A stretch of DNA of 36,973 nt from Oscillospiraceae bacterium (GTDB lineage: Bacteria; Bacillota; Clostridia; Oscillospirales; Ruminococcaceae): positions 1 through 36,973 of the forward strand of contig JAGAEK010000066.1 of the NCBI GenBank assembly GCA_017828835.1, in the 5' to 3' direction. Position numbers and translations under genes: made by a program. The notes beneath the pieces were generated by a model. That model ran no database searches. It was given only the letters and a program-made list of their open reading frames with translations, and was not told the origin of the DNA. How positions within the stretch are numbered: the stretch's first letter is position 1; the number at the start of each line of letters is the position of its first letter. Of this stretch, positions 4,305 to 36,973 are shown one piece after another.

Positions 4305-4424
4305 ATGCCTGACTGCAAAACCGGAGATTTCACGTTTATCCGGTCGTTTCGGATTTTCGACCTCCACGACCTCGTATATTTACTTCGGAAATCAACCCTT
4401 GTTTGCTTGTGTGGACGCCACTTT

Positions 4425-5609: not shown

Positions 5610-5911
5610 ACGTATTATCTCCTTTGCGTAATAAAAAATTTCTTTCTGAATAAAGAAAAAGATATCCGAATTAGTGTACCCCCCGACAAATAACGGATTA
5701 CGGGATATTGCCGCCGTATGCGGCGCGTGATCCGGTCTCTTTCATTGAATTAATATAACATAGGAGACTATTTCTTACAATGTACTTAATCAACTAAATG
5801 TCCGTTCGGCTTTTAGATATTATATATAAATCAATTCATGTTTACGTTTTGATTTTGCCGGTCGTAGCGTCGGTCCATCAGCTTTTACCGACCGTGTGAT
5901 TTTTTTAACAC

Positions 5912-5940
5912 TTGCAAAACACGAATAAATGCGATAAAAT
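5912..5940 (+). promoter_or_regulatory. Candidate sigma-A promoter for the lipoprotein gene pair
   Basis: TTGCAA (5912-5917), a 17-nt spacer and TAAAAT (5935-5940), about 50 nt upstream of the ATG at 5990. Confidence 0.45.
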
Positions 5941-5989
5941 ATATTATGTCTTTAATTTAGTTGAAAAAATATATTTTGGGAGGTACATT

Positions 5990-6682: not shown

Positions 6683-7185
6683 TGAACGCCATGTTTGAAG
6701 AAAAGTTTATTAAACTTGTCGAGGAAAACGACGGCTTTGAGTTTTATCAGGCGTACCGCAACGACGTCGACCACGTGATCGGCGGCAAAGGCGATACCTA
6801 TTGGTACGTCATAATGAAAAAAGGCAAAGTCACTGAAGCCTATATAGGGAAAAACAAGGGCGGCGTCTGGGAAGACAAATATATAAAGGTCAGCGGTGCA
6901 AGCAAAAAGGAAAAGACTGTGCCTGCCGGCAACACGATCAAACTGATCTCCGAAAAGGCGTATCTGATGCAAAACGAGACTTGGGTCACGCGTCGCACTC
7001 CGAAACCTATCGAAGATGTGCACCCGCACTATCATTACGTTTACGGTTTCGGCGACAAAGGACTCGACGTATCTGTTCAGTACGGCGTGACCATCGCATA
7101 TTCCGATATCAAGGACGTAGATGCGGGTTTCCATTTGAGATACCTGTACACCGGCTCCGACGTAACGCTGCCGGACATCGATTAG
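6679..7185 (+). CDS. Hypothetical protein, translationally coupled to the upstream lipoprotein gene
   Basis: Its ATG overlaps the upstream stop codon (ATGA overlap at 6679-6682). The protein is 168 aa with no signal peptide and no recognisable motif. Confidence 0.7.
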   Translation: MMNAMFEEKFIKLVEENDGFEFYQAYRNDVDHVIGGKGDTYWYVIMKKGKVTEAYIGKNKGGVWEDKYIKVSGASKKEKTVPAGNTIKLISEKAYLMQNETWVTRRTPKPIEDVHPHYHYVYGFGDKGLDVSVQYGVTIAYSDIKDVDAGFHLRYLYTGSDVTLPDID

Positions 7186-7278
7186 AAATAACTTTCGCCT
7201 CCGGAACGAGCGGTATCACGATACTCCAGACTTGACGGAACGCGAAAAAATCTTTTGACCGTTTACAACCAAATGTAA

Positions 7279-7306
7279 AAGCACCCTCGCCGGGGTGCTT
7301 TTTTGT
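7279..7306 (+). terminator. Rho-independent terminator of the 5990..7185 gene pair
   Basis: The hairpin agcaccc-tcgcc-ggggtgct is followed by ttttttg. Confidence 0.7.
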
Positions 7307-7401
7307 TGTGCGAATATAATAAATTTATCAAATTTGGTTATTGCCTGTGAAAAGTAAGCTGAGAAAAATTTCATCGAAAATAAAAACGAATCAAAGAGAT
7401 A

Positions 7402-7449
7402 TAAATAAAATACGCCCGGATTCTTCGTTTCCGGGCGTATTATTTTTTT
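7402..7449. terminator. Bidirectional rho-independent terminator, serving the giant minus-strand gene
   Basis: The hairpin atacgcccgga-ttcttcgtt-tccgggcgtat (7410-7440) is flanked by aaataaaa on the left and tattttttt on the right. It lies about 100 nt downstream of the stop codon at 7541-7543. Confidence 0.7.
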
Positions 7450-7540
7450 GTCCGATCGCAGTCCCGTTACAGGACCGCGGTCAATCTGTCAGCAGAACAG
7501 GCCGCCGTTTCCGGCTGCTTGTTCTGCATCGGTCATGCAA

Positions 7541-16500: not shown

Positions 16501-17482
16501 TGTATACGTTTTCGCCCTGCATCTTGATGGCGACGACTTCGCCGTCCGTCACGTTGAACGTGTCGGTCAGAGTGAAGTTATAGCGCTGCGTCGCGGTGAT
16601 ACAGCTGCGGACCTGCCAGAGCAGATAGTAATACTGGCCGTTATCGTCCGCGGGCTTGGTGCCCCAGGAACTCTGCCAGGCGGTATACTGCGTCTGAGGA
16701 GCGTATTTTTCCATGCGGGTGATCTTTGCCGTGGTGTCGATATACACGTGGTTGGGCTTGCTCTCCTCAGAGTGCTCTTCACCGTCGCGGTATATGACGA
16801 GCTTTGCTTTGAAATCCGCGCTGGGATGACGGTCCGCGGGCGTTGCACCGTTCGGATCGTAATCCTTGTAATCATAAGTACGCTTTGACGTGCTGTAACC
16901 AACGTCAAAGTAACCGTGCTGAGCTGCCGGGCAGGGCAGACGGTTGTATACAACGATCTCCTTTGAATTGTCGTCTAACGTATCGATCCTGTATACGAAT
17001 ACGTTATCGTCGGTCAGATTGGGATCGTCGGCATGAGGCAGAGAAATATCGAAGTAATCCGCAGGATCCCCGGCCTGATCCTTGAGGATAGTATAGGGGA
17101 TGTGGATCGATATCTGGTTCTTTTCGAAATAGTCGAACTCGCCGGAGATGGAATAGGTAACGGTGAACTTGAACAGATGGTCCGGGTTAGTTGTTTCCGG
17201 AGTCCATACGTAGTCGCCGTTATCCTGCTCTTCAGCGCCGAGGACGAGAGTCGAAAAGATACCCTCTATCTGCAGAGTACTGCCGTCTCCTCCTCCGCCT
17301 CCGGAGCTTCCTCTGTCGACGGGATCTTCATCACCGCCATCGGTCGTTCTCGGAAACACCGTGCCGTTTTCGGCAAAGACCGGGTTTTCAACCGTAGGAG
17401 CCGCAAGGACCTCTATCGCCGCAGACGATAAAGAACCGAACAGCATCACTACGGTAAGAACAATTGAGATTAGTTTTTTCAT
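7541..17482 (-). CDS. Giant (about 3,313 aa) multidomain cell-surface adhesin-like protein with SpaA-like, BspA/DUF285 LRR, pilin-like Ig and Cna-B repeat modules
   Basis: It is a single uninterrupted 9.9-kb ORF. I place the start at the ATG at 17482 (MKKLISIVLTVVMLFGSLSSAAIEVLA signal peptide), not the upstream M at 17521. The domain motifs are listed in the sub-features below. The C-terminus has a hydrophobic segment followed by RKRRFA. Confidence 0.92.
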   Translation of the reverse strand: MKKLISIVLTVVMLFGSLSSAAIEVLAAPTVENPVFAENGTVFPRTTDGGDEDPVDRGSSGGGGGDGSTLQIEGIFSTLVLGAEEQDNGDYVWTPETTNPDHLFKFTVTYSISGEFDYFEKNQISIHIPYTILKDQAGDPADYFDISLPHADDPNLTDDNVFVYRIDTLDDNSKEIVVYNRLPCPAAQHGYFDVGYSTSKRTYDYKDYDPNGATPADRHPSADFKAKLVIYRDGEEHSEESKPNHVYIDTTAKITRMEKYAPQTQYTAWQSSWGTKPADDNGQYYYLLWQVRSCITATQRYNFTLTDTFNVTDGEVVAIKMQGENVYRPTSDTNCGKVYNQTTSYPNGRYDNVITRHLKATYDEQPTYSFTNKAYGNVHPLDGVDRDSNADATKRWAYEHPVFHPGSGVGMSFDKYGYDYNDKRVYDSEDIRSFDLDPYHTGSVNEITNLAWYTSSAATTYALTVPEGLTNTDPNNYFLVPATVELTDNRIGVRLIGESSSVKLNAGEYRFDKVVVSYTMLDAYFDETTQSFKTKAVTYEPNEAITIYAQFGTDEWVAVGSLATATAAFTPTEAGTSHNVTASGKTIIFGDHTCTGYRLVASNKHYRTTLGAKPYVTLLRCEKVDTVVERAYTENQNEFAVVNTASTAVYKGADNTGTPVKTASKSGVDYVIGISRQSAITKSVRFKNDPLNQRCVLTWSISMNESYLSEGGKRVYVEQQSGMFYDLLPYGGTFDKSSLVVYSDSKRLNQNQYSVETQSNYLGSGRTLLIISIYEPAKTSYSFNYATNHSWDSIAEFGNYVLNSVAYETGNEDIGDGYPDNGGPASGSGHITDRLLMTDLDPDTNANKFIYTQCSHNIVALTAGNLGLYKKVMAEKDEDYVYATTTISGGEYSYKIHFATDAATWVKDMILFDSLENYVLVDDTVSDWHGILQGFDFTVLEANGIDPVLYYSTKENLQIKDLGVTADYNFAANAETWIKASGPNDPNLVNAHAFAIDIRKTKTGDNFVLDPSSALTAIVYMKAPDAIESEAINPTAYNNIFLFNSVKFGHDSEFADPSLNHQDYTRISFRQMAEIKILKIDYDVYETTGEIVPIPGIVFRLWGDSHYGDYIDYTYTTNSLGIINFGSIPRGVYTLQELDGVDDYVEDHTPITVTIDQNGNVIFGELVDDAYTLEPYGTLVIGYDEGTATWVLSNRERVHGDLDFDKVGKVVGQSYTTPLLNVSFLIYGTSYYSTEINMPVSSGGDGVVHIRNLERGTYEMVETSTNANYFPLDTVFTVICDANGDITISYVDEDGNTIYPLENGDYVIVNTPYYELPLWKYNSVTGDSISGAKFKLTGENYYDEQTSGSDGLLTFRFLVPGTYVLRELEAPEGVIPDNKNHTVIVDNDGNITIDGKTIQEYIDEYLTSTTVSGDINYFPIPNEPEKGTITIIKEWVGLAEGETPNVTPTLHLDTTKPNPNIPEATIDYDAWTTYVNGMTIPDNGSATGKHGLIQENFRIQRTIDDSPQKVRIDIRSFEKYNNRDIPTAEQMNQSVEESWADIAAAVTSTSQYVFDEETILKLEQWRRIDDDTTNYRIFIKLVHVDDTTTGSGSGLTYISVYKAVWWSDAPNVYLPENASKMFAALTYMIGTLDLRGIKSSRTTDMSQMFEQSHCSEIRMDFDTSKVTTMHRMFRYSSVQQLPDIVTWDTSSVTDMSRMFECSGLRSIDMTHWNTSSVTTLASMFHTCKLECDLDFSMLDFSNVTSMAYMFYNGGTNCQVTSIKFPKNLAKVTTMYDMFTGSKNLVTIDFNGADARNVTDVFQLIIGCDALKTLILPDDMRSITNQFMGAFRGMKALETIVMPTRLDNCSSLQDTFNGDKALTSIDMSYCYMPNMVNFMTTFNGCSGLTTILMPEGANMLSKVKSFWMMCYGCTSLTSFDLSGRNLSGVIDEWGDSTAGFEWMFANCSSLQTVDFSGSYAPNTMVTYEMFRNCSNLTTCNMEGFILGGPDTIYGGGSFYMMFFGCEKLEEIDISGFYTPDANHQANAYYMFGDCKKLATIYASAEWPTEGFTPGMTGGSLSCYFMFHGCTLLHNDGFDSAHPENNKNYCTFTTNTTLPGNFTQKDAPTVPTFPADPVPSDLINASPSPDFVIEPATSGENGTTKSETPTEQSISYTSEPNKWVQREDGTWSYTFDVYDVDGTYYLWESALPGYESDCTIENPITIHYTAGGTITTEPADKLVEYETGKYGVKITNTKVVPDYVSITLNKIVTGVEDDETEFVLHIVVTDLEENPVPDALYGDVTLIGGEADVTLKNNGVVTLLNLPAGIIYEVTEPDTQDFEATITNGSGTLEENGASVTVTVENHKDVPVTVGLEVTKVLTTDGEAILTDEDLARKFSVTVTLYTDSTFETVATEINGLYGDVHFTDGVGSTMIGKDETVSITGLPTVDDNGDPLPLWYKVEEAYVEGFNVSYTGQAGQPAETPVSAVITNTKFNPPVGGFKVVKVLEGASAGDTTTFNFAVSFNGLKPGVTYIYTIGTTEYSFTALAGGNWYEEFSLTNGQTATFTNLPENATYTVTETGNDYIPSFTLVSNKTVGSASGNNTIPTLALSTGTETVEDGEDATITFTNTPAVVDVEGHKEWVGDEDVAEVVRPDHITIYLMEGTAQIQELTVYPDDNGYWSWSFTNLPKYDSTGSEITYSIEEEVVYGYETTIEGYNVTNTYIHTYIDIPVQKLWQDNNNHDNTRPGSIILNLYADGVLKETVSVSADLETGNWSYVFEHLPKYRTGSTTKEIEYTVTENAVPGYVSTLSGNSMDGFTITNTLVTNIEGEKTWLDGEGENRPESIVIHLLADGVDTEKFYVATPETNWSWSFSNLPVYKIVDDAYVEIEYTITEEAVSGYLTVINGYNVTNIEKTEATVVKVWNDDEDRDGARPDYLTVQLKADGAAYGDPTVLNEDNDWSATIENLPKYKDGGTEIIYTWEELDLPATYTLTGNTVNGTITTLTNTHEPGKISICVEKQWRDDDNRDGIRPQSIHVQLLANDDPYGEPIELNEENEWKYTWNDLPEKAAGVEIVYTIDEIDIPEGYGITINGTPKEGFLIINPHTPAETEATVIKVWDDDDDNDGARPDYLTVQLKADGEAYGDPTVLNEDNDWTATIENLPKYKDGGIEIVYTWEEVDLPNTYTLTGNVANDTVTTLTNTHEPEKIQLDGVKIWAGETDKENQRPASITIRLYADGVEIDHVVVTAATGWTFKFEGLDKYKDGVEIEYTITEDEVVGYKTSISGTKVTNTWKPPHENPPTSDRAIFPTKMIILAAVAGFVLVVARKRRFA
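7544..7660 (-). other. C-terminal sorting-signal-like tail (NPPTS motif, hydrophobic helix, basic tail)
   Basis: The tail reads KPPHENPPTSDRAIFPTKMIILAAVAGFVLVVARKRRFA. It has the tripartite layout of a sortase signal but no LPXTG. NPPTS is encoded at 7631-7645. Confidence 0.5.
7661..9645 (-). repeat. Array of seven Cna-B-type (collagen-adhesin B-region) repeats, about 86-99 aa each (coding repeats)
   Basis: The pattern K.W.D..N.D..RP..I.V.L.ADG.......L.....W...F..LPKY..G..I.YT..E....GY.......TNT recurs seven times, from VDVEGHKEWVGDED... to ...VGYKTSISGTKVTNTW. Confidence 0.8.
7925..8799 (-). repeat. Recent intragenic duplication: two roughly 290-bp copies offset by exactly 585 bp
   Basis: Copy 1 spans 7925..8214 and copy 2 spans 8510..8799. 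Both begin gggttcgtgagtattggtaag and end agtcgcttcggtct. They share long identical runs such as ccgccgtctttgtacttaggcagattctcgatcgttgc and agtcgttatcttcgttgagcaccgtaggatc. The encoded repeats are ATV(I/V)KVW.DD.D.DGARPDYLTVQLKADG.AYGDPTVLNEDNDW.ATIENLPKYKDGG.EI.YTWEE.DLP.TYTLTGN. Confidence 0.85.
9646..10770 (-). other. Three pilin/isopeptide-type Ig-like domains (coding sub-region of the giant gene)
   Basis: There are three segments of 110-140 aa, each ending in ..(V/I/F)TNT or ..VENHK. Each has an internal L..LP.G..Y.VTE motif (LLNLPAGIIYEVTEPD, ITGLPTV...YKVEEAY, FTNLPENATYTVTETG), as seen in Gram-positive pilin backbone domains. Confidence 0.45.
11235..12645 (-). repeat. BspA-type leucine-rich repeat / DUF285 '26-residue surface-protein repeat' module (about 470 aa)
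   Basis: Units of the form (W/F)(D/N)TS.VT.M..MF recur (FDTSKVTTMHRMF, WDTSSVTDMSRMF, WNTSSVTTLASMF, FSNVTSMAYMF). These are followed by F.GC..L..I..P-type BspA LRRs (FNGCSGLTTILMPEG, CYGCTSLTSFDLSG, FANCSSLQTVDFSG, FRNCSNLTTCNMEG, FFGCEKLEEIDISG, FGDCKKLATIYAS). Confidence 0.75.
13300..14266 (-). repeat. Three SpaA/prealbumin-fold (SdrD-B-like) domains
   Basis: The signature G..F.L.........T...G.......L..G.Y.L.E...P..Y......H.V.(I/V)...G occurs three times: GIVFRLWGD...RGVYTLQELDGVDDYVEDHTPITVTIDQNGNV, VSFLIYGT...RGTYEMVETSTNANYFPLDTVFTVICDANGD and AKFKLTGE...PGTYVLRELEAPEGVIPDNKNHTVIVDNDGN. Confidence 0.6.
17399..17482 (-). other. Sec signal peptide of the giant surface protein
   Basis: MKKLISIVLTVVMLFGSLSSAAIEVLA|AP has a basic N-region, a hydrophobic core and an A-x-A-like cleavage site. 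Confidence 0.8.
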
Positions 17483-17873
17483 CCTTTGCACACCTTTCTT
17501 ACAATCTATATATCCCCACAAGAATATTATATGCGATCAAACAAAAATCAGGATTCAAAAAGCACAGATCTCATGGCCGAAGTAGACGAACTGCAAAGAC
17601 CCGCCTTTTAAATCCCGGTTGAAAATAATTGATATTCAAAAAGTATATTTTGTGCTTGCCGAAAGACGTTTCCGGAAAATAAATCGCGCACCGTAAAACC
17701 TCGGATAAGCGCTTATATGTCACTCCTTGCCGATCAAATCGGCGGAAGCCCCGGAACAACATAATGCGACTAAACCAGTTTATAATGTATCATAAGGTTT
17801 TTCCTTTGTCAATAGATAATTTTCAATTTGTACTACATAATTATGAACGATAGCTCAAGAATATGTACAAAAG

Positions 17874-17907
17874 CTAAACAAAAAGCCGAAATGCAAAGCA
17901 TTTCGGC
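17874..17907 (-). terminator. Rho-independent terminator on the minus strand, downstream of the 17949..18245 reading frame
   Basis: A perfect 10-bp stem gccgaaatgc / gcatttcggc (17885-17907) has a 3-nt loop. On the minus strand it is followed by ctttttgttt. Confidence 0.6.
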
Positions 17908-17948
17908 TCGCTGTCTAACGTTGATTTTATTATTAATATTATTTCAAA

Positions 17949-18245
17949 TCAGAAGAAAAGGGTATCCCCGTCACTGAATATTACCTTTATAGGCTTAGAA
18001 TCATCTAAAGAATTATCACCATATTGTTCTTTAGAATTATCAATATATCTATACAAAAAAGACCAAAGTTCATCACCGGAAATGATCGGCTCCATTCCTT
18101 CTCCGTATAGTTCATATGATATTCTGACCACTCCCGCTGCCGGCACTGCTGTTGTGCTGAAAATATATTCCGAATCACATTCTCCGCTGTTGCAAAACTC
18201 TCCGTTATACCGAAAACTCGGTACAAAAACAGGATAAACCGCATA
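17949..18245 (-). pseudogene. Orphan reading frame: a possible gene remnant, or a 48-aa small protein
   Basis: The frame is open for 98 codons (YAVYPVFVPSFRYNGEFCNSGECDSEYIFSTTAVPAAGVVRISYELYGEGMEPIISGDELW...DGDTLFF). Its first roughly 33 codons contain no ATG, GTG or TTG. The only SD-preceded start is the ATG at 18095 (GGAGAAGGAATG), which would give 48 aa. It has its own terminator downstream. Confidence 0.3.
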
Positions 18246-18318
18246 TTATCATAAAAGTACTTTCGATTTTCACGAAAATATGATAATATAAAAAAAGAGT
18301 TGGTAAAGGGGGATTTTA

Positions 18319-19113
18319 ATGAGCGATGAACTAAGGATTGCGGCAGGAATAATGATACCGTTTTTCGGAACTCTTTTAGGTGCCGCTGCGGTGTTTTTCA
18401 TAAAAAACAATAATATGGGCGATAAATTGAGAAAACTGCTACTCGGTTTTGCTTCGGGAGTCATGATCGCGGCATCCGTCTGGTCGCTGCTCATACCGTC
18501 TATAAGTATGTCGGCGGGATACGGTTCAAATGCTTGGATACCCGCAACGGCGGGATTTTTGCTCGGGATGGGATTTTTGCTTTTGCTCGATACGGTCACT
18601 CCGCATATCCATATAAACGATTCGGAACATCAGGAGGGCAAACCGTCCGGACTCGGAAAATCGATGATGCTGATCCTGGCGGTAACTTTGCATAATATTC
18701 CGGAAGGAATGGCCGTCGGCGTTGCGTTTGCCGGAGTTATAAGCGGTAAAGCCGATATAACGATGTCGGGAGCGATAGCGCTCGCAATAGGGATCGCGAT
18801 ACAGAATTTCCCCGAAGGCGCGATCATTTCGGCTCCGCTTTTGTCGAGCGGACTGTCAAAGAAAAAATCGTTTTTATACGGAGCGGCATCGGGTATAGTG
18901 GAACCGATAGGAGCGGTGTTGACACTGCTCATAACCTCGGCGGTAACTTCGGCTTTGCCTTATATCCTTTCTTTTGCCGCCGGCGCAATGATCTACGTCG
19001 TCGTGGAAGAACTGATACCCGAATCAAGATCCGAAAATCACAGCAACGCGGGAAATATCGGCGTCGCTTTCGGATTTGCGCTTATGATGGCGCTCGACGT
19101 GGCGCTTGGATAA
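18319..19113 (+). CDS. ZIP-family (ZupT-like) divalent metal transporter
   Basis: It is a multi-pass membrane protein carrying the ZIP signatures HNIPEGMAVGVAF and IQNFPEGAIISAPL. AAAGGGGG lies upstream of the ATG. Confidence 0.9.
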   Translation: MSDELRIAAGIMIPFFGTLLGAAAVFFIKNNNMGDKLRKLLLGFASGVMIAASVWSLLIPSISMSAGYGSNAWIPATAGFLLGMGFLLLLDTVTPHIHINDSEHQEGKPSGLGKSMMLILAVTLHNIPEGMAVGVAFAGVISGKADITMSGAIALAIGIAIQNFPEGAIISAPLLSSGLSKKKSFLYGAASGIVEPIGAVLTLLITSAVTSALPYILSFAAGAMIYVVVEELIPESRSENHSNAGNIGVAFGFALMMALDVALG

Positions 19114-23992: not shown

Positions 23993-24820
23993 TTATTTTG
24001 AATTTTTCGGAAGAACGGAATTTTTGTAAGCGGACGGAGTGATACCCTCGAGCTTTTTGAAAAGTTTTGAAAAATAATAAACGTCGTTTATTCCGACCGA
24101 ATACGCTGCCGATTTCAGCGGCTCTCCGTTTGCGATAAGCGTTTTCGCTTTCTCAATCCTCTGTTTGAGGATATACTTTTCCGGGGATATGCCGAATTTG
24201 TCTTTGAACAATCTGTAGACGCGGCTTCTGTCGACACCGAGATACTCAGAAATCTCAGACACCGATATCCCTTCAGCGCAGTGAAAATCGATAAACGCAA
24301 CGGCACCGTCTATTTGACGGTTGAATTTTTTGCCGCCGCCGTTTCCGGCGGACTCTTCGATCGCGCTGAAACACTCCATAACGCATCCCTCGAAATACGC
24401 CGCCGTGGGATTTTCTTTTTTGTCAACACAGCGCTCGAGTATTTCTTTTATCTTGTTTTCAAATATATTGTTATTTACGGTCACTTTCAGGTCGTCTTTA
24501 TCTATGCCGGCTTTTTCGAGGTGCTTTTCGACGAAATCCCCCGTGAAACATATCCAGCAAAAAGTCCAGGGGTCGTCCGGATCGGAATAGTAAAGTGCGG
24601 CGTCTCTCGGAAGGATAATAAACGCGTCGTTTGCCGAAAGAGAATACTTTTTCCCTCTGACCTCGTAATATCCCCTCCCGTTCAAAACCTTGTGTATTAT
24701 ATACGGGTACCTTGCGTAAGGCCCGCAAGAAAAGTTTTTATCACAGTTCAAATACCCGCAGCCGCAAAACCGCCAGTTCGAGTCCTCGTCGAAATGACTT
24801 GCCCAATATTCTTTCCTCAT
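23993..24820 (-). CDS. AraC-family transcriptional regulator (cupin-like sensor domain plus HTH)
   Basis: The C-terminal double HTH (ISVSEISEYLGVDRSRVYRLFKDKFGISPEKYILKQRIEKAKTLI....L..AAYSVGINDVYYFSKLFKK..GITPSAY) is typical of AraC/XylS. The N-terminus resembles an AraC-type ligand-binding cupin. I prefer the ATG at 24820 (TTGAGGT 6 nt upstream) over the ATG at 24838. Confidence 0.88.
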   Translation of the reverse strand: MRKEYWASHFDEDSNWRFCGCGYLNCDKNFSCGPYARYPYIIHKVLNGRGYYEVRGKKYSLSANDAFIILPRDAALYYSDPDDPWTFCWICFTGDFVEKHLEKAGIDKDDLKVTVNNNIFENKIKEILERCVDKKENPTAAYFEGCVMECFSAIEESAGNGGGKKFNRQIDGAVAFIDFHCAEGISVSEISEYLGVDRSRVYRLFKDKFGISPEKYILKQRIEKAKTLIANGEPLKSAAYSVGINDVYYFSKLFKKLEGITPSAYKNSVLPKNSK

Positions 24821-24909
24821 AATGAACCTCAACTCCATTCCCTGCTGTCAATATAACAAATATCATGGTAAAAGTCAACAATAATACAAAACAAATCATC
24901 AATTCGCCA

Positions 24910-24938
24910 TTGAGAGATGCCGATAAAATCAGTATTAT
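24910..24938 (+). promoter_or_regulatory. Candidate sigma-A promoter of the glycyl-radical-enzyme operon
   Basis: TTGAGA (24910-24915), a 17-nt spacer and TATTAT (24933-24938), in the 145-bp divergent region shared with the AraC gene. Confidence 0.4.
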
Positions 24939-24965
24939 TGTAATAGAAGAAGATTATTATACGGG

Positions 24966-26951
24966 GTGATAACGACGTTAAACAATATATCGCAACAATT
25001 TTACAATGTCGGAGAAATCTTTGCGGGAGCGATGTTCGAAAATGAAGACCTCCCGATCTTCGACCGTATGTCTCACGCTTATGCGGAATACTGGAGCCGC
25101 AAGGTGCTTCCCGCTTACAACGGCGGGAAATTATACCCCTGCGGTCCGCTGGGAGAACCCGATTACGCAGTAACTCCGAGCGCGTCATACGTATATACCG
25201 TTGACAAAGAACGCCTGGACAAAAAAGATCCTGCGCTTTTCGGGTATCTTATAGACGAGTTCGCCGGTTCGTCCTGCGGATATACGATCCACTCAGTCGC
25301 CGGGTTCGGTTTCACTCATTCGCTGCCCCACTACGGAAGGATCGCAAAAGAGGGCTTTGATTCTTATTATGAAAGGATACAAAGAAAAAACGGCGAACTG
25401 AAAAACGGACTTTCGGAATTATTAGACGGAATCAGGAAATTCCGCGGACGCTGTATCGATAAGCTGATAAAAGAAAACGCGGATGAAGAGCTTATAGCGG
25501 CTCTTAAAAAGGTTCCGTTCAGACCGGCGGAAAACATATACGAAGCAATAGTATGCATGAATTTCATTTATTACCTTGATTGCTGCGACAACGTCGGACG
25601 TCTGGATACGGACCTGCTTCCTTTCTGGAAAGGCGAGGATATCGTCGGGCTTTTGGAGGAATTTTTCAAAAACGTCGATGAAACCGAAGGTTATTCGTCG
25701 TCGATCGGTCCGGACTACAATCCTCTGACGCTGCAATGTCTTAAAGCGATAAAAGGCAAAAGGCGTCCGCAGATAGAATTGAGGATCCGTCCAGATATGC
25801 CGAAAGAACTTTGGGACGCGGCGATAGCGTCTCTTGCCGAGGGTTGCTCCAACCCGTCTTTGTATAACGATCCGTTATACGAGCAATCGTTCAAAAAAAG
25901 ATTTCCCGATCTGCCCCATGAGGATTTTCTGCGGTTTTGCGGCGTCGGATGTACCGAAAGTACGCTTGCGGGCCTTACGAACGCAGGTTCTCTTGACGCC
26001 GGTATACACACTCCTGAGATTTTTTCGGTATATATGCGGGAAAATCTCGGAAAATGCAGCTCGTTCGAGGAATTTTACAACGGCTTCATCGCAAAATACA
26101 AATCCGAGCTTGAGGACGTTGTTGACCGTCTGCGCGAATATCACACCCTCAGAGCAAAATGCAGGCCGCACCCGATGAGAACGCTCGTTGTCGACGACTG
26201 TATCGATAAAGACAAGGATTTCAACAACGGCGGCGCGAGATACTCCTGGAGCGTTATAAACTTTGCGGGACTCGTGAACGTTTTTGAAGATATGCTCGCG
26301 GTCAAAGAGCTTATATTTGACAAAAAACTGTTTTCGGCGGAAAGATTCATCAAAGGTCTCGACGACGAGGACCCCGAAATATTCAACGCTTGCAAACGCT
26401 GCAAGCATTACGGAGTCGACGACGACGAAGCGGATTCGCTCGCCGCAAGGATACTCGGAGATCTTTTGGATGAACTTGACAAACACAGGACCTGCTTCGG
26501 CGGACAATTCCTGCCCGCGTCGATCCAATTCAACACCTGCGTCTGGGCGGGTAGAACCGTTCTTGCGACGCCGGACGGAAGAAAACGCGGTACCTCTCTT
26601 GCGGATTCTCTCTCTGCAATACACGGAAACGACACCGACGGTATAACCGCGATGCTCAACAGCGTTGCAAAACTGCCGCTTTGGAGAATGACCGGGACGC
26701 CCGTGCTGAACGTAAGACTTGAAAAGACGTTCATGAAAAACAACCTTCCTGCGATAGTGAGCGGATTTTTCGCAAACGGCGGTATGCAGATGCAGATAAC
26801 CTGCCTCAACCGCGAAGATATGCTCGACGCGCAGGAGCATCCCGAAAACCACGGCAATCTCGTGGTAAAGGTCGGCGGATATTCGGATTATTTCGTGCGT
26901 CTGCCGAGAGACCTTCAAAATCAAATCATTTCAAGGACTGAATTTGTATGA
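24966..26951 (+). CDS. Glycyl-radical enzyme (PFL-like superfamily), unusually short, substrate unknown
   Basis: The C-terminal glycyl-radical fingerprint VVKVGGYSDYFVRLPRDLQNQIISRTEF matches (R)V.G(Y)x6Lx4Qx2Ix2R. The radical Gly codon is at 26877-26879. The catalytic Cys loop FCGVGCTES has Cys at 25950-25952 and Glu at 25956-25958. The motifs ATPDGRKRGTSLADS and NNGGARYSW are GRE-typical. The start is uncertain: GTG at 24966 has no SD, and ATG at 25032 lies only 2 nt after GGGAG. An in-frame stop upstream caps the length at 661 aa. Confidence 0.9.
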   Translation: MITTLNNISQQFYNVGEIFAGAMFENEDLPIFDRMSHAYAEYWSRKVLPAYNGGKLYPCGPLGEPDYAVTPSASYVYTVDKERLDKKDPALFGYLIDEFAGSSCGYTIHSVAGFGFTHSLPHYGRIAKEGFDSYYERIQRKNGELKNGLSELLDGIRKFRGRCIDKLIKENADEELIAALKKVPFRPAENIYEAIVCMNFIYYLDCCDNVGRLDTDLLPFWKGEDIVGLLEEFFKNVDETEGYSSSIGPDYNPLTLQCLKAIKGKRRPQIELRIRPDMPKELWDAAIASLAEGCSNPSLYNDPLYEQSFKKRFPDLPHEDFLRFCGVGCTESTLAGLTNAGSLDAGIHTPEIFSVYMRENLGKCSSFEEFYNGFIAKYKSELEDVVDRLREYHTLRAKCRPHPMRTLVVDDCIDKDKDFNNGGARYSWSVINFAGLVNVFEDMLAVKELIFDKKLFSAERFIKGLDDEDPEIFNACKRCKHYGVDDDEADSLAARILGDLLDELDKHRTCFGGQFLPASIQFNTCVWAGRTVLATPDGRKRGTSLADSLSAIHGNDTDGITAMLNSVAKLPLWRMTGTPVLNVRLEKTFMKNNLPAIVSGFFANGGMQMQITCLNREDMLDAQEHPENHGNLVVKVGGYSDYFVRLPRDLQNQIISRTEFV

Positions 26952-27835
26952 TGATTTTCGATATAAAACGCGCGTCGGCATCCGACGGACCGGGACTGAG
27001 ATCTGTCGTCTTCTTCAAAGGGTGTCCGCTGCGCTGCGCCTGGTGCCACAATCCGGAATCGTATTCCGCATCGCCTCAGCTGTCTTACGCAGAAGAAAAG
27101 TGCGTTTCCTGCGGAAAATGTTCTCAAATTTGCGAACACGGCTGCCACGAGATCAAAAACGGAGCACATATTTATTCGTCCGAAAAATGTGTTCTTTGCG
27201 GAAAATGCGCAGAAGAGTGCCCGACGAAAGCGCTGAAACTCTACGGAGAAGAAATTTCGGTCGATCGGGTGTTTTCAAAACTTCTGCGGGACAAAGCGTA
27301 TTACGTTTTCGGCGGAGGCGTTACCTTTTCGGGCGGAGAGCCGATGTCGCAGTTTGAAGAAGCTCTCGAGCTGGCGAAAAAGCTTTATGAAGCCGGCGTT
27401 TCGGTATGTATGGAGAGCTGCGGCTACGGAAATACGGAGGATTTTCTTGAGATCGCAAAATATATCGACTTCTTTCTGTTCGACGTCAAATGCGTGAAAG
27501 AGCTCCATAAACGCTGCACCGGAGTTGAAAACGACCTGATAATCAAAAATCTCCACGCATTGAGCGATGCCGGAGCGAAAATAATATTGCGCTGCCCGAT
27601 AATCCCCGGCGTCAACGATAATAAGGAACACCTCGAATATCTCGCGTCGCTTTCAAAATTGAGCGGAGTCAAAGAAATAAACCTTGAGCCGTATCATCCG
27701 ATCGGAATATCAAAGAGAAAAATACTCGGTATGCCGGTCGAATACGGCAACCCCGAGTTTGCAGACAAAACCGAGATCGAAAACCTAAAGAAACAATTAT
27801 CCGTACTTACGGATAAAGATATAAAAATTATTTAA
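26948..27835 (+). CDS. Glycyl-radical-enzyme activating protein (radical SAM, with two auxiliary ferredoxin-like clusters)
   Basis: The N-terminus DGPGLRSVVFFKGCPLRCAWCHNPE carries the CX3CX2C radical-SAM motif. It is followed by CVSCGKCSQICEHGC and CVLCGKCAEECP (two 4Fe-4S ferredoxin motifs) and the SAM-binding GGVTFSGGEP. The start overlaps the GRE stop (ATGA). Confidence 0.93.
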   Translation: MMIFDIKRASASDGPGLRSVVFFKGCPLRCAWCHNPESYSASPQLSYAEEKCVSCGKCSQICEHGCHEIKNGAHIYSSEKCVLCGKCAEECPTKALKLYGEEISVDRVFSKLLRDKAYYVFGGGVTFSGGEPMSQFEEALELAKKLYEAGVSVCMESCGYGNTEDFLEIAKYIDFFLFDVKCVKELHKRCTGVENDLIIKNLHALSDAGAKIILRCPIIPGVNDNKEHLEYLASLSKLSGVKEINLEPYHPIGISKRKILGMPVEYGNPEFADKTEIENLKKQLSVLTDKDIKII

Positions 27836-27854
27836 TAAAAAGGAGATGTTTGGT

Positions 27855-29189
27855 ATGTTAAAAAAGGTATTCGCAGCAGCGCTTGCGGTACTGATGGTGA
27901 TCCTCTGCTTTGCCGCTTGCGGCAAGGGCGGCGAATCGTCGAACCCTCAGGAATCGTCAAAACAGGAAAGCAACTATCCTTCGGGATTCGCTTTTGACGA
28001 AACAAGTTTTAAAGGCAAAAAACTTCAGTGGTGGAATCACTGGGACACCGTTGACACAAAGGGTCATATCGCCGAGTTTGAAAACGCAACCGGTACAAAG
28101 ATCGAATACAGCACTCTTTCCGGCGGCGGCGGAACGGAATACGCCGCACAGCTCAGCTCTGCAATAACCGCAGGAACGGGACCCGATATCGCCGTCGTTT
28201 ACGACTGGGCCGTCCCCAGCTGGACTAAAAAAGGATTGCTTGTACCTCTCGACGAAGTCATGAACCTTTCCGACGAAATATATAAAGATAAAATAAGCGA
28301 TGCAATGCTCAATTTCTTCGCATATAACGGCAAATCTTACGTGATTGCGACAAACGAGGTTTCTTGTTATTATCTTATCTACCGCAAAGATCTGATCGAA
28401 GAGGCAGGCCTTGACGATCCTTATGAGTTATGGAAAAATAAAGAATGGAACTATACGAAGTTCAATGAATATCTTGCCGCTCTGACTTATGACAGCGACG
28501 ACGACGGCGTTATCGATATGTTCGGTCTCACCGGATATACCGACGAGGGATGGCTCGGAACGGTCGAAAACGGCAACTACGTCAGATGGACCGAGGATGG
28601 TACCCCGAAATTTGCTCTCACCGATCCAGATCTTATCGCGGCGCTGACCGAAGCTCACGTCGTCGGAACAAACGGCTGGATAAGAAACGATGTTTTGCCG
28701 CTCGACGAGTTCCTCAGCGGAAAATTCGCGTTTTTGTTCAGCGCTCAGTGGGATTGGGAGAAAGCGATCGATACTTTCGGAATCGAAAAAATCGGATTTG
28801 TCCAGATGCCTTATGCGGAAGGGGTCAATGAATCAAAGGTAGTTTTGAACAGGACCAACGCATCGGGGTATGCGTTTACCCAAAATATCGACGAACCGGG
28901 ACTTGCCGAACATTATATAAAATACGCGATGTTCTGGGACAGAGCGGACCGCAACCTCGACGCTAAGCCGGAAAACTCGCCTACATTCGGCGGAAGCCGT
29001 GAGTTTTATGAATTCCACAGGCAGATGCAAAAACTCACGTTCGCTCCAAACGCCGGATCTTTCGGAGTTTTGTATAACGTAATAGCGTCTAAGATACTTT
29101 GGAACTATACCGACACTGTAGCAAATCTTGTTCAGAGCGCTCAGCCGGCAGCGCAAGCTTTGATCGACGAGGTGTTCTACGAAGACTGA
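27855..29189 (+). CDS. Extracellular solute-binding lipoprotein (carbohydrate-type ABC substrate-binding protein family)
   Basis: The signal peptide MLKKVFAAALAVLMVILCFAAC carries a lipobox and is followed by an S/E/Q-rich linker. The size (about 445 aa) and motifs (GPDIAVVYDWAVPSWTKKGLLVPLDE, YNGKSYVIA) are typical of family-1 sugar-binding proteins. The ATG at 27855 is 9 nt after GGAG. Confidence 0.88.
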   Translation: MLKKVFAAALAVLMVILCFAACGKGGESSNPQESSKQESNYPSGFAFDETSFKGKKLQWWNHWDTVDTKGHIAEFENATGTKIEYSTLSGGGGTEYAAQLSSAITAGTGPDIAVVYDWAVPSWTKKGLLVPLDEVMNLSDEIYKDKISDAMLNFFAYNGKSYVIATNEVSCYYLIYRKDLIEEAGLDDPYELWKNKEWNYTKFNEYLAALTYDSDDDGVIDMFGLTGYTDEGWLGTVENGNYVRWTEDGTPKFALTDPDLIAALTEAHVVGTNGWIRNDVLPLDEFLSGKFAFLFSAQWDWEKAIDTFGIEKIGFVQMPYAEGVNESKVVLNRTNASGYAFTQNIDEPGLAEHYIKYAMFWDRADRNLDAKPENSPTFGGSREFYEFHRQMQKLTFAPNAGSFGVLYNVIASKILWNYTDTVANLVQSAQPAAQALIDEVFYED

Positions 29190-29214
29190 TTTTCCCGGAG
29201 GGAGAAGATCTTTT

Positions 29215-31746
29215 ATGAAAATTTTCAAAAAGGTGATCGCGGTAGTTTCGGCGGCGGCAATATTGGCGGCGTTTTCTGCCTGCAATACTTCAAATCCGTC
29301 TGAAAGTGAACCGCCTTCATCGGTATCGTCTAAATCTGGAGGGTTCGGTTCGACGAGCAAACCCAGCAGACCGGAATCCAGCGCGATCGAACTCACGGTA
29401 TCCGATATTTTCAAAAACGAAGTAATCGCTTACGAACAGAAGATCGGTGAGGCAAAAACCGGCGTTATGGATTTTTCCTGGCTCAACGACGTTCCCGCCG
29501 GTACTCACGGATTCGTTACGGTGAAAGACGGCGACTTCTGTTTTGAAGACGGTACCTCGGTAAAATTCTGGGGAGTAAATTTGGGATTCGGCGCGGCGGC
29601 TCCCGAAAAGGAGACCGCCGAGGCAATATCCGAAGAGCTTTACCGTTTGGGCGTGAATATGGTAAGACTCCACGCGCTCGACGCGGGTCTCGTTGATTAT
29701 TCCGAAAACACGACCCAGCTGTTTGATGAGAAATTTTTCGACCGGATGGACTATTTCATCTGGCTGCTGAAACAGCGCGGTATATATATACACCTCGATC
29801 TTATGTGCGGTAAAGGCTATCTTCCCGGCGACGGATTCACCGCAGAGGAAATGGATTATTTCATAAAATCCGCCGGCGGCGCGAACGATAAGACCGGACT
29901 TGTCAAAGAAACAAGACTTTTCAACGACAGATGTATCGAGCTTGACAAAAAATATATCGAAGGGATCCTGACTCATTTCAATCCGTATACCGAAATGAGA
30001 TATTGCGACGATCCTGTCTTCGCCGTGGTCCAATACGTGAACGAGACGAGCATCTTTTGGACTCAGCAGATGATATCGACTCCGTTCGAGGGAGAACTGA
30101 ACGAAAAGTATAACGAATGGTTATGCGAAAAATACGGCGACCGTGCAGCTCTTGAGCTTGCATGGACGGACGAAAAAGGTGTTTGTATTCTTAACGCCGA
30201 CGAAGACCCCGAAGCCGGAACGGTAGTCGGAGAAGGATTGGGGTGCTGGGGCGAAAGACTTGTCGGATGGAACAGCAAGCTGTCGACCCGTCTTGCGGAT
30301 TATAAAGAGTTTTTATACGATACCGAAGCAAAAACCTTTACCGAAATGTATGAATTTATGAGAGCTCTCGGGCTGAAATGTCCGATCAACCTCTCGAACT
30401 ATCCTCTCGGTCCCGCGGACAGAAAGGTCAACTCTCTCGGAGACGTTACTGAGAAAAACGCCTATTGGGGCGATAATGACGTCAGTATGACCGAGGCGGA
30501 ACCTTCTTCCGAATATCCGAGAAACACCCTGGTCGATCTTTCCTGCGGTTGTGTGGCGGATAAACCGTTCGTCATCACCGAATGGAACTGTTTGTCGACG
30601 GTGGAATTCAAAGCCGACGGGTTGTTCCAAACGGCGGCGTACGCGGCGCTCCAGGATTGGGACGGATTTTTGCTCTTCACCTGGACCTTCCAGTCCGGAG
30701 CAACGTATTTTTATTCCGACGCAATGACGGATCTTTACAGCGCAAACATGGATCCGTCGACGATCGGTCAATTCGGAATGTGCGCGGCGCTTTTCAGGTT
30801 GGGACTTGTGAGCGAGGCAAAAAATTCGGTCGAATGCGTATATACCGAAACCGACGTATTCACACAACCGTCAAATTATATGGCTTATCAGTATTCCGTT
30901 CCGTTCATATCAAAGTTTTCATATAGGTTCATAGATGAAAAATACGACGGAAACGCCGATTTTGTAATAACTTCGGGAAATTCGGCTTCCGGAGATTATT
31001 CGTCGGCTAAAAAGCTGCTGCTCCATTCAATGAATCCTTATTCGGATATTTCAAAGCAAAACAACGCGAGAGAAACTTGGCTTAAGAAATATATCGAAAA
31101 TAACGCCGAAATCAAAAAACTCGGCGGCGCGGAATTTGCGGTAGGAGAAAACCGCGTCGTATGTGTCGCACCTGAAGGCGCTTACTATTTCGGAGGCTCG
31201 TCCGTTACTTCCGTGGTCGACGCGTCAATGAAACAGCTCGGCATCATCGGTAACGACGAAGGCTTTGTCGACGGAAAAATAATTTCCGATACAAAAGAGA
31301 TCGTTTTCGATTATAAAAATAACGGATTTTTTATAAATACCGACAAAATCGATGTTTTTGCCGGCGTTACGAACGGCTCGGCGGCGTCCGGAAGCTTTTC
31401 TTTGAAAACAACGAACGATAAAGCGGCGATCGCCGTGATCGCGCTTGACGGAGATAAGATCGAGACATCAAATTCGGTCTTTGTCTATGCGATGGGAAGA
31501 TGCGCAAATAACGCCCGCAATATCATCGGCGGAGACGGTTCGCTGCAAGGCGTCGGACGCGCTCCGATATTATATGAGGATATCCGCGGAACGCTCACGG
31601 TAAGCTCCGAAAAATCTTCCGCTGTCGCTTACGCTTTGTCCTCTTCCGGAAAACGAGTCAATGAAATTCCGGTAGCGGAAATTTCAGGCGGATTTACTTT
31701 GACTCTCGCGGGAAGCTGTTTTTATGAAATAGTTTTCGCGGACTGA
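29215..31746 (+). CDS. Large lipoprotein with a clan GH-A (GH5-like) glycoside-hydrolase-type TIM-barrel region; specificity unknown
   Basis: The signal peptide plus lipobox (AILAAFSAC) is followed by a Ser/Pro-rich linker. The stretch HGFVTVKDGDFCFEDGTSVKFWGVNLGF...LGVNMVRLHALD resembles the start of GH5/GH2-type barrels. The candidate acid/base is VNE (Glu at 30043-30045) and the candidate nucleophile is ITEWN (Glu at 30580-30582). I could not assign the C-terminal roughly 380 aa. Confidence 0.6.
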   Translation: MKIFKKVIAVVSAAAILAAFSACNTSNPSESEPPSSVSSKSGGFGSTSKPSRPESSAIELTVSDIFKNEVIAYEQKIGEAKTGVMDFSWLNDVPAGTHGFVTVKDGDFCFEDGTSVKFWGVNLGFGAAAPEKETAEAISEELYRLGVNMVRLHALDAGLVDYSENTTQLFDEKFFDRMDYFIWLLKQRGIYIHLDLMCGKGYLPGDGFTAEEMDYFIKSAGGANDKTGLVKETRLFNDRCIELDKKYIEGILTHFNPYTEMRYCDDPVFAVVQYVNETSIFWTQQMISTPFEGELNEKYNEWLCEKYGDRAALELAWTDEKGVCILNADEDPEAGTVVGEGLGCWGERLVGWNSKLSTRLADYKEFLYDTEAKTFTEMYEFMRALGLKCPINLSNYPLGPADRKVNSLGDVTEKNAYWGDNDVSMTEAEPSSEYPRNTLVDLSCGCVADKPFVITEWNCLSTVEFKADGLFQTAAYAALQDWDGFLLFTWTFQSGATYFYSDAMTDLYSANMDPSTIGQFGMCAALFRLGLVSEAKNSVECVYTETDVFTQPSNYMAYQYSVPFISKFSYRFIDEKYDGNADFVITSGNSASGDYSSAKKLLLHSMNPYSDISKQNNARETWLKKYIENNAEIKKLGGAEFAVGENRVVCVAPEGAYYFGGSSVTSVVDASMKQLGIIGNDEGFVDGKIISDTKEIVFDYKNNGFFINTDKIDVFAGVTNGSAASGSFSLKTTNDKAAIAVIALDGDKIETSNSVFVYAMGRCANNARNIIGGDGSLQGVGRAPILYEDIRGTLTVSSEKSSAVAYALSSSGKRVNEIPVAEISGGFTLTLAGSCFYEIVFAD

Positions 31747-31765
31747 TATTATAATCTTTTTAATA

Positions 31766-31810
31766 AAACTACGCTGCCGTAAAAATTACGGCAGCGTAGT
31801 TTTGTTTTTG
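31766..31810. terminator. Bidirectional rho-independent terminator between the GRE operon and the feo operon
   Basis: A 16-bp perfect stem aaactacgctgccgta / tacggcagcgtagttt is followed by tgtttttg on the plus strand and by ttttattaaaaag on the minus strand. Confidence 0.75.
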
Positions 31811-35491: not shown

Positions 35492-36973
35492 TTAAAACTC
35501 GATTATCACGAATCCCGCCGCCGGAACGACGGCGCGATAACTGCGCTCGCCGAGCTTTTCAAGAGAAGCCGCCCCCATCGCCTCTTTGACGATATGCGGC
35601 GTTACGTTTTCTCTGAAACTGACCGTGACCGTCTTGTCAGCCTCATGGTGTATAACGTTGCCTTGTTGAAGACTGCGCTCATTGCCCTCGTTGTTAAATA
35701 TCGAAAGGTAGCGCCTGCCGCGCTCGTCTTTCGAAACCAGCCAGCACAGACCGTCGGAAAAACATGGCATAAGCTCCTTTGCCGCGGCGTTTATCTCTCT
35801 TTCCAACCTGCCGAAATCTCCGCTCTCCAAAATCCTCATACCGCTTCCCGCTTTCAAACGGGCAAACCCGCCGTCCGGAGAGGCGTCTATGAGACAGCCG
35901 TAACGCGACAAAACCGTATCGGATGCATCGGCATATACTATATCAAAAATATCGCCAAATCGGGAATTCGTGATCACGTGTCCTTCGTTCCCGATAGGTT
36001 CTGTCTGTAAATATATCAGTTTCAGCACGTCTTCGACGTGGCCGTAATAGTTCTTATCCTCTTCTCCGAGCGGACAGCACATATAAGTGCCGCGGTGTTT
36101 TCCGAATTCGTATCCGTCGAACATACCCGGCAACTCCATACAAGCGTATCTGACCGGCAATACTATCGCGAACGGTGTGATCGGTTCAATTTCTCTGAAT
36201 TCCGCCGCAGTATTGATAAAATCCTTTTTAATTCTTCCGTAATCCGAAAGAGTGAACTCTTTCATATCGGTGTAGCTGCAGTTTAGCCCCCATTCTTCCG
36301 AAAAATACTGCGCGCCCGACATAAGAGCGTAATAATATATCCTGTTTTGCAGTATACGCGATGATCCGCCGTTTTCACCGTCGCGAGTAAAGTCGTCGGG
36401 ATGCAGCTCTTGCGTCAAATACCATTCGTTTGATCGATCCGAGTTAAAACACGGCATCGAATAATAGGACCCGCCGTTTTCACGAACTTCGCGCCAGCAC
36501 TCATAGTAGACTCCCCAGGTCTTACCGCTCGCTCTCGCCGCGCCGCGTGCCATTGCCGTCTGCTGACGCATGAGCGGTATCTGACAACCCACCTCCGGCA
36601 TAAAACTGCGCATTCCCAGCTCGTCCTGCAATCTTGTCGCCATATAATAACTGTCGCAGGGCAATATCTTTCCGCCTGTCTCCGCCATTCTGCGGCCGAA
36701 CATATCTTTTATTTCATCAAGAAAAGCCTCCGGAGTGTCGGCATAGCGCAGGCCGGCATAGAATTCAGGTCCGTCCTGCGATAGGACCGACAGCAGCTTA
36801 CCGTCCGGCATCCTCGCGTAGCTGCTCTTTGTTCGCTCTTTCAGAAATTCAGTATCGTAGGGACCCTCCGCACCGTCCGTAAGTCTTATGATATTCCTCC
36901 AGTCGTTACGGCGGTTGGATGCGCTTTCGTGCAGCTGAAATCCGAGAAACCAATCCCCAAGCAGTTCCGAATA
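35492..36973 (-). CDS. Hypothetical protein, N-terminus outside the window
   Basis: The frame of the 35492..36811 ORF stays open to the window end (YSELLGDWFLGFQLHESASNRRNDWRNIIRLTDGAEGPYDTEFLKERTKSSYARMPDGKL...). No signal peptide or diagnostic motif was recognised in the visible 493 aa. Confidence 0.7.
   Translation of the reverse strand, partial: YSELLGDWFLGFQLHESASNRRNDWRNIIRLTDGAEGPYDTEFLKERTKSSYARMPDGKLLSVLSQDGPEFYAGLRYADTPEAFLDEIKDMFGRRMAETGGKILPCDSYYMATRLQDELGMRSFMPEVGCQIPLMRQQTAMARGAARASGKTWGVYYECWREVRENGGSYYSMPCFNSDRSNEWYLTQELHPDDFTRDGENGGSSRILQNRIYYYALMSGAQYFSEEWGLNCSYTDMKEFTLSDYGRIKKDFINTAAEFREIEPITPFAIVLPVRYACMELPGMFDGYEFGKHRGTYMCCPLGEEDKNYYGHVEDVLKLIYLQTEPIGNEGHVITNSRFGDIFDIVYADASDTVLSRYGCLIDASPDGGFARLKAGSGMRILESGDFGRLEREINAAAKELMPCFSDGLCWLVSKDERGRRYLSIFNNEGNERSLQQGNVIHHEADKTVTVSFRENVTPHIVKEAMGAASLEKLGERSYRAVVPAAGFVIIEF

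Follow-up and report, generated by a model that had tools for sequence, protein, structure and literature searches.

Glycyl radical enzymes (GREs) that act as eliminases drive the formation of trimethylamine, hydrogen sulfide and propionaldehyde by gut microbes, which is of host relevance. A C-x-E motif in the cysteine loop is the hallmark of the 1,2-eliminases and of a new isomerase class (YbiW and PflD), and its glutamate hydrogen-bonds to the substrate hydroxyl and deprotonates it (PMC13450708). YbiW and PflD, the enzymes of 'anhydroglycolysis', are alone among characterised GREs in acting on sugar derivatives; their substrates are phosphorylated anhydro-hexitols, and the 1-deoxyfructose-6-phosphate product is cleaved by downstream aldolases (PMC13450708). 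GREs sharing 40-50% identity are generally not isofunctional (PMC11528403), and whole GRE clades remain unassigned according to a 2026 review, which makes no mention of a compact clade of ~660 aa (PMC13450708). A GRE of this compact kind is encoded in the DNA analysed here, a stretch of 36,973 nt from an Oscillospiraceae bacterium (contig JAGAEK010000066.1, hereafter the window). It stands in a row of four plus-strand genes with its activase, a substrate-binding lipoprotein (SBP) and a glycosidase-like lipoprotein (GHL), next to a divergent gene for an AraC-family regulator.

Comparison between genomes showed that AraC, GRE and activase form a module conserved across many uncultured Clostridia, and that this module is joined to SBP and GHL in this one species only. 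The locus is probably a mosaic operon, that is, a lineage-specific fusion of two separately conserved units that may or may not be linked in function; a new pathway leading from glycans to radical chemistry, as an earlier note on this DNA had proposed, is possible. It would be wrong to treat the window operon as a conserved pathway, and the compact GRE clade, which is large and unstudied, is more interesting than the operon itself. The locus comprises the following features:

23993-24838, minus strand: AraC-family regulator with cupin sensor and helix-turn-helix (HTH) domains (Pfam AraC_binding, HTH_18, HTH_AraC), divergent from GRE
24839-24965: divergent control region of 127 nt with back-to-back promoter-like sites
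24966-26951, plus strand: compact GRE of 661 aa with PFL-like and Gly_radical domains; GTG start, alternative ATG at 25032
26948-27835, plus strand: GRE-activating radical S-adenosylmethionine (SAM) enzyme with a ferredoxin-like insert (TIGR02494, Radical_SAM, Fer4_12, Fer4)
27855-29189, plus strand: SBP, an orphan sugar-type (family 1) substrate-binding lipoprotein (SBP_bac_1, SBP_bac_8, lipobox)
29215-31746, plus strand: GHL, an 843-aa clan GH-A-like lipoprotein with a predicted (beta/alpha)8 glycosidase fold and C-terminal beta domains (alignment, AF2, Foldseek)
31762-31806, plus strand: strong intrinsic terminator with a 21-bp perfect stem and a T tract, common to the convergent feo genes

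Conservation of the gene order

The neighbourhoods of GRE homologues were compared using one genome per species, which gave 80 loci with a short GRE at 40-58% identity. The hosts were nearly all uncultured Clostridia, Oscillospiraceae and Christensenellales, with a few Treponema, Lentisphaerae and Kiritimatiellia. Clustering of open reading frames (ORFs) across these loci showed that the AraC gene and the activase were the only recurrent neighbours of GRE. An AraC-family gene lay beside GRE in 41 other loci (approximately half of the 80), usually in the opposite orientation and with a median distance of ~110 nt upstream, while the activase was directly downstream in 23 other loci by clustering, and in 26 of 80 by tblastn (~30%). 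Other neighbours were highly heterogeneous: a Pfam scan of 59 downstream and 65 upstream neighbours identified 69 and 87 different families respectively, almost all of them once. In many loci the neighbours were unrelated genes, such as PLP-dependent enzymes of Cys/Met metabolism, CorA, Tex and sporulation genes.

The earlier note had expected GRE homologues to co-occur with the binding protein and glycosidase genes, and this expectation failed in both directions. A tblastn search with the SBP and GHL of the window (E <= 1e-3) produced no match at any of the 80 GRE loci, and neither GRE nor activase was found at any of 83 GHL loci searched. Outside the window, the five genes stood in this order only in contigs that are 97% identical to it (L081 and L082, judged by GRE), and these repeats are not independent because they come from the same species. 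Among the closest GRE relatives (53-60% identity), the AraC-GRE pair was present nearly throughout and the activase in most. AraC-GRE-activase was followed by the contig end in P0002 (L173; 60%), by an unrelated 709-aa protein in L002 (58%), by a 470-aa lipoprotein in P0008 (L170; 55%) and by Tex in P0007 (L171 and L172; 53%). P0003 (59%) had AraC-GRE, after which the contig ended ~200 nt later in three assemblies retrieved; P0006 (L086; 58%) was the exception, being without AraC, activase, SBP and GHL.

Some of these loci had further peculiarities. P0003 is carried by 11 contigs; in L083, L084 and L085 its stop codon was followed by ~200 nt of AT-rich non-coding DNA, with no activase before the contig end, which hints at a repeat or strain-variable region downstream. 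The 709-aa protein of L002 (12925-15054), which is cytoplasmic and encoded directly 3' of the activase of a 58%-identical GRE, was considered as a GHL relative on account of a 'YMNEP' motif; it was rejected, with an hhalign probability of 0.2 against the GHL profile and no Pfam or PDB match. More than one GRE was present in several neighbourhoods: L079 (9087-15041) contained two tandem AraC-GRE pairs, whose mutual identity was only 42%, and L042 (6285-11989) contained a second GRE, only 28% identical. In L007 (10010-11989), the short GRE was split into ORFs of 325 and 330 aa, either as a frameshift pseudogene or through an assembly error. Conventional GREs of 727-799 aa, accompanied by SDR or aldo-keto reductase genes, were present in L002 (16156-19328) and L086 (6967-9150).

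The two units were also found apart. L087 contained SBP (69% identity) and GHL (61%) without GRE, beside a biotin-ligase-family gene (BPL_LplA_LipB), and promoter-like sites were identified both in the 182-nt region upstream of its SBP and in its SBP-GHL spacer of ~240 nt. GHL occurred alone in L088 (55%), adjoining the same biotin-ligase-family gene, SBP occurred alone in L174, L175 and L176, and AraC-GRE-activase occurred with unrelated genes, as described above. AraC-GRE-activase, SBP and GHL thus assort independently in related genomes, and the arrangement in the window is one species-specific combination.

This independence, together with the heterogeneity of GRE neighbourhoods, would also be consistent with a fortuitous adjacency produced by rearrangement, in which SBP and GHL perform ordinary glycan foraging and GRE acts on a non-carbohydrate metabolite. 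That explanation is judged somewhat unlikely. The spacers of 19 and 25 nt in the window, compared with 182 and ~240 nt in the free-standing pair of L087, leave no room for an independent promoter, so that expression would now be coupled; moreover, the arrangement is stable across three metagenome assemblies, and sugar-related neighbours of GRE recur in other lineages (see below).

Transcription signals and missing partners

According to the ORF map and to the junction sequences themselves, GRE and activase overlap by 4 nt, while activase and SBP are separated by 19 nt, and SBP and GHL by 25 nt. An AGGAG sequence lies 9 nt 5' of the SBP ATG at 27855; this ATG was taken as the start, rather than the 27846 position of the longer ORF, because the latter is too near the ribosome-binding site. 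A consensus scan of the divergent region identified a promoter-like site on the plus strand (24910-24938, TTGAGA/TATTAT) and another on the minus strand (24878-24850, TTGACT/TATATT, TG-extended), while the scan found no promoter-like site on the plus strand between 25007 and 28345. The hairpin at 31762-31806 had a folding energy of -31.4 kcal/mol (z = -8.5), and both internal spacers folded no better than shuffled sequence. One candidate internal terminator from a pattern scan (29190-29206) was rejected, since its fold was no more stable than that of shuffled sequence and it overlapped a ribosome-binding site. A search of Rfam returned no riboswitch or leader RNA element.

Given the tight spacing, the lack of an internal terminator or promoter-like site in these scans, and the single strong terminator, it is plausible that the four plus-strand genes form a single transcription unit. 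The organisation described in the earlier note (a divergent AraC gene, four packed plus-strand genes spaced by -4, 19 and 25 nt, and a strong terminator) was therefore borne out by the ORF map and by folding, and its single transcript is plausible from the sequence signals.

The same note had reported that the locus lacks genes for a permease or ATPase, for microcompartments and for dehydrogenases, and this also held. Six-frame translations of the 37-kb window contained no permease and no ABC ATPase, and neither was found within 10 kb on either side in the near-identical contigs, where the annotated genes likewise included no microcompartment shell gene and no aldehyde dehydrogenase. Shell protein and aldehyde dehydrogenase genes were absent among the top 25 neighbour families listed for the 80 GRE loci. 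At the locus itself there is no kinase, aldolase or dehydrogenase to complete a pathway.

The compact glycyl radical enzyme and its activase

The GRE matched PF01228 (E = 1e-19), while PFL-like models matched residues 252-659 only and did not recognise the N-terminal 250 residues. Its Cys loop reads G-V-G-C329-T-E331 and its Gly loop VKVG-G638-YSDYF. In an alignment of 22 family members G328, C329, T330, E331 and G638 were invariant, and among the ORFs from the 80 loci G-C-T-E was present in 73 of 75 short GREs and a canonical Gly loop in all; VKVGGYS is conserved across the family as R[IVT]GG[YF][STA]. A non-glycine radical enzyme (AARE) was ruled out, because the radical position is glycine in every member. 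Almost all homologues were 650-665 aa long, compared with 776-850 aa for solved GREs, which makes shortness a trait of the family as a whole. Several 50%-identity clusters of ~660-670 aa emerged when 1.8 billion cluster representatives were searched exhaustively, and so did a continuum of relatives of 675-750 aa that aligned over the whole length.

The AF2 model of GRE (pLDDT 91.7) resembled GRE crystal structures at TM 0.83-0.89 by Foldseek, with values of ~0.88 at ~20% identity for propanediol/glycerol dehydratases, PflD, HypD and CutC. In this predicted structure the Cys loop meets the Gly loop within a 10-stranded beta/alpha barrel. In the comparison with solved GREs, the C-x-E of PflD was aligned to Cys329 and Glu331. 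None of the named GRE equivalogs (HypD, CutC, HpsG, HpfG, PFL, HPAD, IAD and YjjI) passed, with scores of 26-219 bits against NCBIfam cutoffs of 498-1150. The activase scored 303.5 bits for TIGR02494, where the cutoff is 174, and so qualifies as a cognate radical SAM activase. The G-C-T-E Cys loop predicts eliminase or isomerase chemistry for the compact GRE. No paper was found in the literature on the compact clade or on a link between GRE and DUF4838; with no equivalog passing and the clade absent from the 2026 review, this GRE does not correspond to a described enzyme, which on this point supports the earlier note.

One GRE clade can thus be delimited by a length of ~660 aa, a G-C-T-E Cys loop and a usual coupling to AraC; its members are common among the uncultured Clostridia of gut and rumen.

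The two lipoproteins

SBP was assigned to the family 1 substrate-binding proteins, as both SBP_bac_1 and SBP_bac_8 passed their Pfam cutoffs, and its translation contains a lipobox reading LCFAAC followed by GKG. The family is small, with only 13 homologues, and these are usually without adjacent permeases. No permease gene stood beside SBP in L174, L175 or L176, and all three contexts were orphan; in L176 there were two tandem SBP copies adjoining an AraC gene. The two adjacent permease genes of a CUT1-type importer were absent from the six-frame translations of the 37-kb window and from 10 kb on either side, in agreement with the description of SBP as an orphan in the earlier note. Proteins of this habitually orphan subfamily may share permeases or serve a purpose other than transport. 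Solved structures were also compared for a possible ligand: a profile that included SBPs from other loci matched 4r9f (deposited as MBP1; E = 1e-25), while the SBP of the window alone gave weak generic matches, and no ligand was inferred. The 4r9f protein is a manno-oligosaccharide-binding protein.

GHL also has a lipobox (AAFSAC followed by NTS, read directly from the translation). When its homologues were checked with a regular expression, most close homologues (~790 aa) had no signal peptide, and a few, including that of the window, were lipoproteins. The AF2 model had a pLDDT of 88.1, with a disordered linker at residues 20-59, and its best Foldseek matches were GH42, GH35 and GH5 (10-15% identity, TM 0.42-0.46). 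N276-E277 and E456 were invariant in 32 homologues, and 72 homologues had faint GH5 or GH42 Pfam matches. GHL itself matched only the GH5 model, and below threshold (19.4 bits, cutoff 23.5); the GH42 matches were likewise below threshold. Owing to the invariant residues and the nearest folds, GHL is predicted to be a clan GH-A-type enzyme, with putative strand positions for the acid/base and nucleophile residues, and the earlier description of it as GH-A-like is supported to this extent. A profile of GHL compared with the PDB gave E no better than 4.5e-7, over ~100 residues of GH5 mannanases; this match was considered too short and weak to name a substrate.

In L089 the operon around P0134 combines a GHL homologue (42%) with a pair of permeases and a pair of SBPs, the latter 34% identical to that of the window. 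This operon (1065-18379) also encodes, beside the cytoplasmic GHL, DUF5696, a DegT aminotransferase, a xylose-isomerase-like TIM barrel, a ceramidase-like protein and two more GH-like proteins, and appears to be an unusual locus for glycan or amino-sugar utilisation. More distant GHL members adjoin GH1, GH3, GH78, MFS_2 and AraC genes. The analysis has therefore also brought out a GH-A-like family without a matching CAZy-family model and a habitually orphan SBP subfamily.

Two other ORFs of the window should be mentioned. At 7541-17521, on the minus strand, a surface protein of 3326 aa has a signal peptide, numerous Ig-like repeat modules, a leucine-rich-repeat-like centre and a C-terminal membrane anchor, and is a probable giant adhesin. 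At 35492-36811, on the same strand, an ORF of 439 aa (578 aa in the near-identical contig L082) had no Pfam or NCBIfam match.

Carbohydrate-related contexts in other GRE lineages

In a minority of genomes GRE stands beside sugar transporters or glycosidases that are not homologous to those of the window (an EamA-type permease, DUF4838, GH2, GH3, GH123 or another orphan SBP-like lipoprotein), which is a softer signal. The partners are arranged much as in an operon. L015 carries GH3, an FAD oxidoreductase, two permeases, GRE, activase and SBP; L034 carries GRE, a xylose-isomerase-like TIM barrel protein, SBP and two permeases. GRE is followed by GH2 in L017, by a GHL6/GH42M-like protein in L067, and by EamA and then a convergent GH123 in L020, while GH38 and DUF4838 are near GRE in L039. 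The 470-aa lipoprotein that follows the activase in L170 resembles an SBP by profile comparison (hhalign probability 97%, E = 5e-11), with ~21% identity to the SBP of the window and no Pfam match. Also near in L170 (7072-12350) are a convergent GH92 and a weakly GH5/GH30-like gene of 533 aa.

DUF4838 is the catalytic domain of GH163 and GH185 (PMC10570127). Three DUF4838/GH67N-type genes precede GRE in L013 (1745-15716), with an EamA gene near; the order is GRE, EamA, DUF4838 in L014 (9995-15041) and L021; and in L044 (604-13562) EamA is upstream of GRE and there are three tandem DUF4838 copies. These four loci have in common a trio of a short GRE, an EamA/GlcU-like DMT permease and cytoplasmic DUF4838 proteins. 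Any claim of enrichment of glycosidase neighbours is limited to a proximity test, in which distance to GRE was compared with that of all other ORFs in the loci. This showed that EamA genes were within 3 kb of GRE (<=3 kb) in 7 of 7 loci (p = 0.0015), and DUF4838 genes in 5 of 6 (p = 0.04, uncorrected). The test gave no significant result for SBP, permease, SDR, Gfo and URO-D-like genes.

These contexts bear on a second explanation of the window, namely a dedicated pathway induced as a whole by AraC, in which GHL frees a sugar or oligosaccharide, SBP binds this product, import takes place through permeases encoded elsewhere, and GRE performs a radical elimination or ring-opening on the sugar derivative. 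The tight co-directional genes before a single terminator fit such a pathway, as do the precedent of YbiW and PflD acting on anhydro-hexitol phosphates, the analogous GRE pairings in L170, L015, L013, L014, L021, L044, L017, L067 and L020, and the closeness of EamA to GRE. Cupin-domain AraC regulators commonly sense sugars, which points the same way. However, no SBP or GHL homologue was found at the 80 GRE loci and no GRE at the 83 GHL loci, SBP and GHL each occur elsewhere without GRE, and many GRE loci have unrelated neighbours. SBP and permease genes were not significantly near GRE, gut Clostridia are glycosidase-rich, such that a high background rate is expected, and the locus has no kinase, aldolase or dehydrogenase. 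A dedicated pathway is considered unlikely.

A broader form of the idea is likewise doubtful. It would make the compact C-T-E GREs a new functional class acting on sugars that are set free from glycans of the host or of plants, and different lineages would each have recruited a transporter and a glycosidase beside GRE on their own: SBP with the GH-A-like GHL in the window, EamA with a GH163/GH185-like DUF4838 protein, an ABC system with GH3, and GH2 or GH123 in other loci. If true, it would add a second radical route to anaerobic carbohydrate catabolism beside anhydroglycolysis. The contexts in any case provide a shortlist for choosing substrates, consisting of the EamA/DUF4838 pairing, the sugar ABC loci and the SBP-GHL fusion.

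Assembly of a probable mosaic operon

The favoured reading is that AraC-GRE-activase and SBP-GHL are two units that were brought together in a mosaic. In the first unit, the AraC regulator would probably sense a small molecule and turn on the divergent promoter. The activase, by virtue of its family membership, would use SAM to put a radical on Gly638; a thiyl radical at Cys329 would then abstract hydrogen from a substrate that bears a hydroxyl group and may be a small molecule derived from a sugar, while Glu331 would deprotonate the hydroxyl and a neighbouring C-O, C-N or C-S bond would break, as the motif suggests. The second unit would be a cell-surface pair, made up of a sugar-binding lipoprotein and a glycosidase of the retaining, clan GH-A type, and any uptake would need permeases encoded elsewhere. 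A mobile SBP-GHL pair has probably docked 19 nt 3' of the activase in this species and lost its own promoter-bearing spacers; with those spacers lost, the pair would most likely be read from the AraC-controlled promoter.

Several observations weigh against the mosaic. A weak promoter within the activase gene could have been missed by the consensus scan. The negative result for co-occurrence comes mostly from homologues at 41-58% identity, below the usual isofunctional level, so that the test has little power; such homologues may use other substrates, and the tandem pairs of L079 are themselves only 42% identical. The docking in this species may have been selected, rather than neutral, since GREs of other lineages stand beside sugar transporters and glycosidases of other families. 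Finally, the eliminase or isomerase assignment draws on one motif and on fold similarity at ~20% identity.

The failure of homologues to co-occur therefore means that the operon is not conserved, and does not make the link in this species meaningless. For the pathway from glycan to radical proposed in the earlier note, the compact co-directional layout stood, while conservation of the pairing did not, as the modules circulate separately.

Comparison with known systems

The GRE of the window shares with the 1,2-eliminases (B12-independent glycerol/1,2-propanediol dehydratases, HypD, CutC, IslA and HpsG) a common 10-stranded barrel (TM 0.88 to 9rcp and 1r8w), a C-terminal Gly loop, a C-x-E Cys loop and an activase with a ferredoxin-like insert. 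It differs from them in being ~120-190 residues shorter (661 versus 776-850 aa) at ~20% identity, in having C-T-E rather than the usual C-V-E, and in a best equivalog score of 219 bits against a cutoff of 678. Unlike the loci of these eliminases, that of the window is paired with an AraC regulator and has no microcompartment or aldehyde dehydrogenase genes.

YbiW and PflD also retain C-x-E, and of the solved structures it was PflD (8id0) that matched best in sequence, with 232 bits across the C-terminal 400 residues. However, these enzymes are ~770-810 aa long, the window locus has no aldolase or phosphorylating transport gene, and the similarity of the GRE to YbiW and PflD is no higher than to HypD or glycerol dehydratase.

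For the second unit, one of the closest systems is the family 1 sugar ABC locus L089, where an SBP of the same superfamily and a GHL homologue are combined in one operon. That operon has two permeases and a cytoplasmic GHL, whereas in the window there are no permeases, both proteins are lipoproteins, and SBP belongs to an orphan subfamily. GHL is set apart from the multidomain glycosidases of clan GH-A (GH42, GH35 and GH5) by the low identity, TM values and sub-threshold Pfam scores given above, and is predicted to be like them in its (beta/alpha)8 barrel, N-E acid/base pair, Glu nucleophile and C-terminal beta-sandwich domains.

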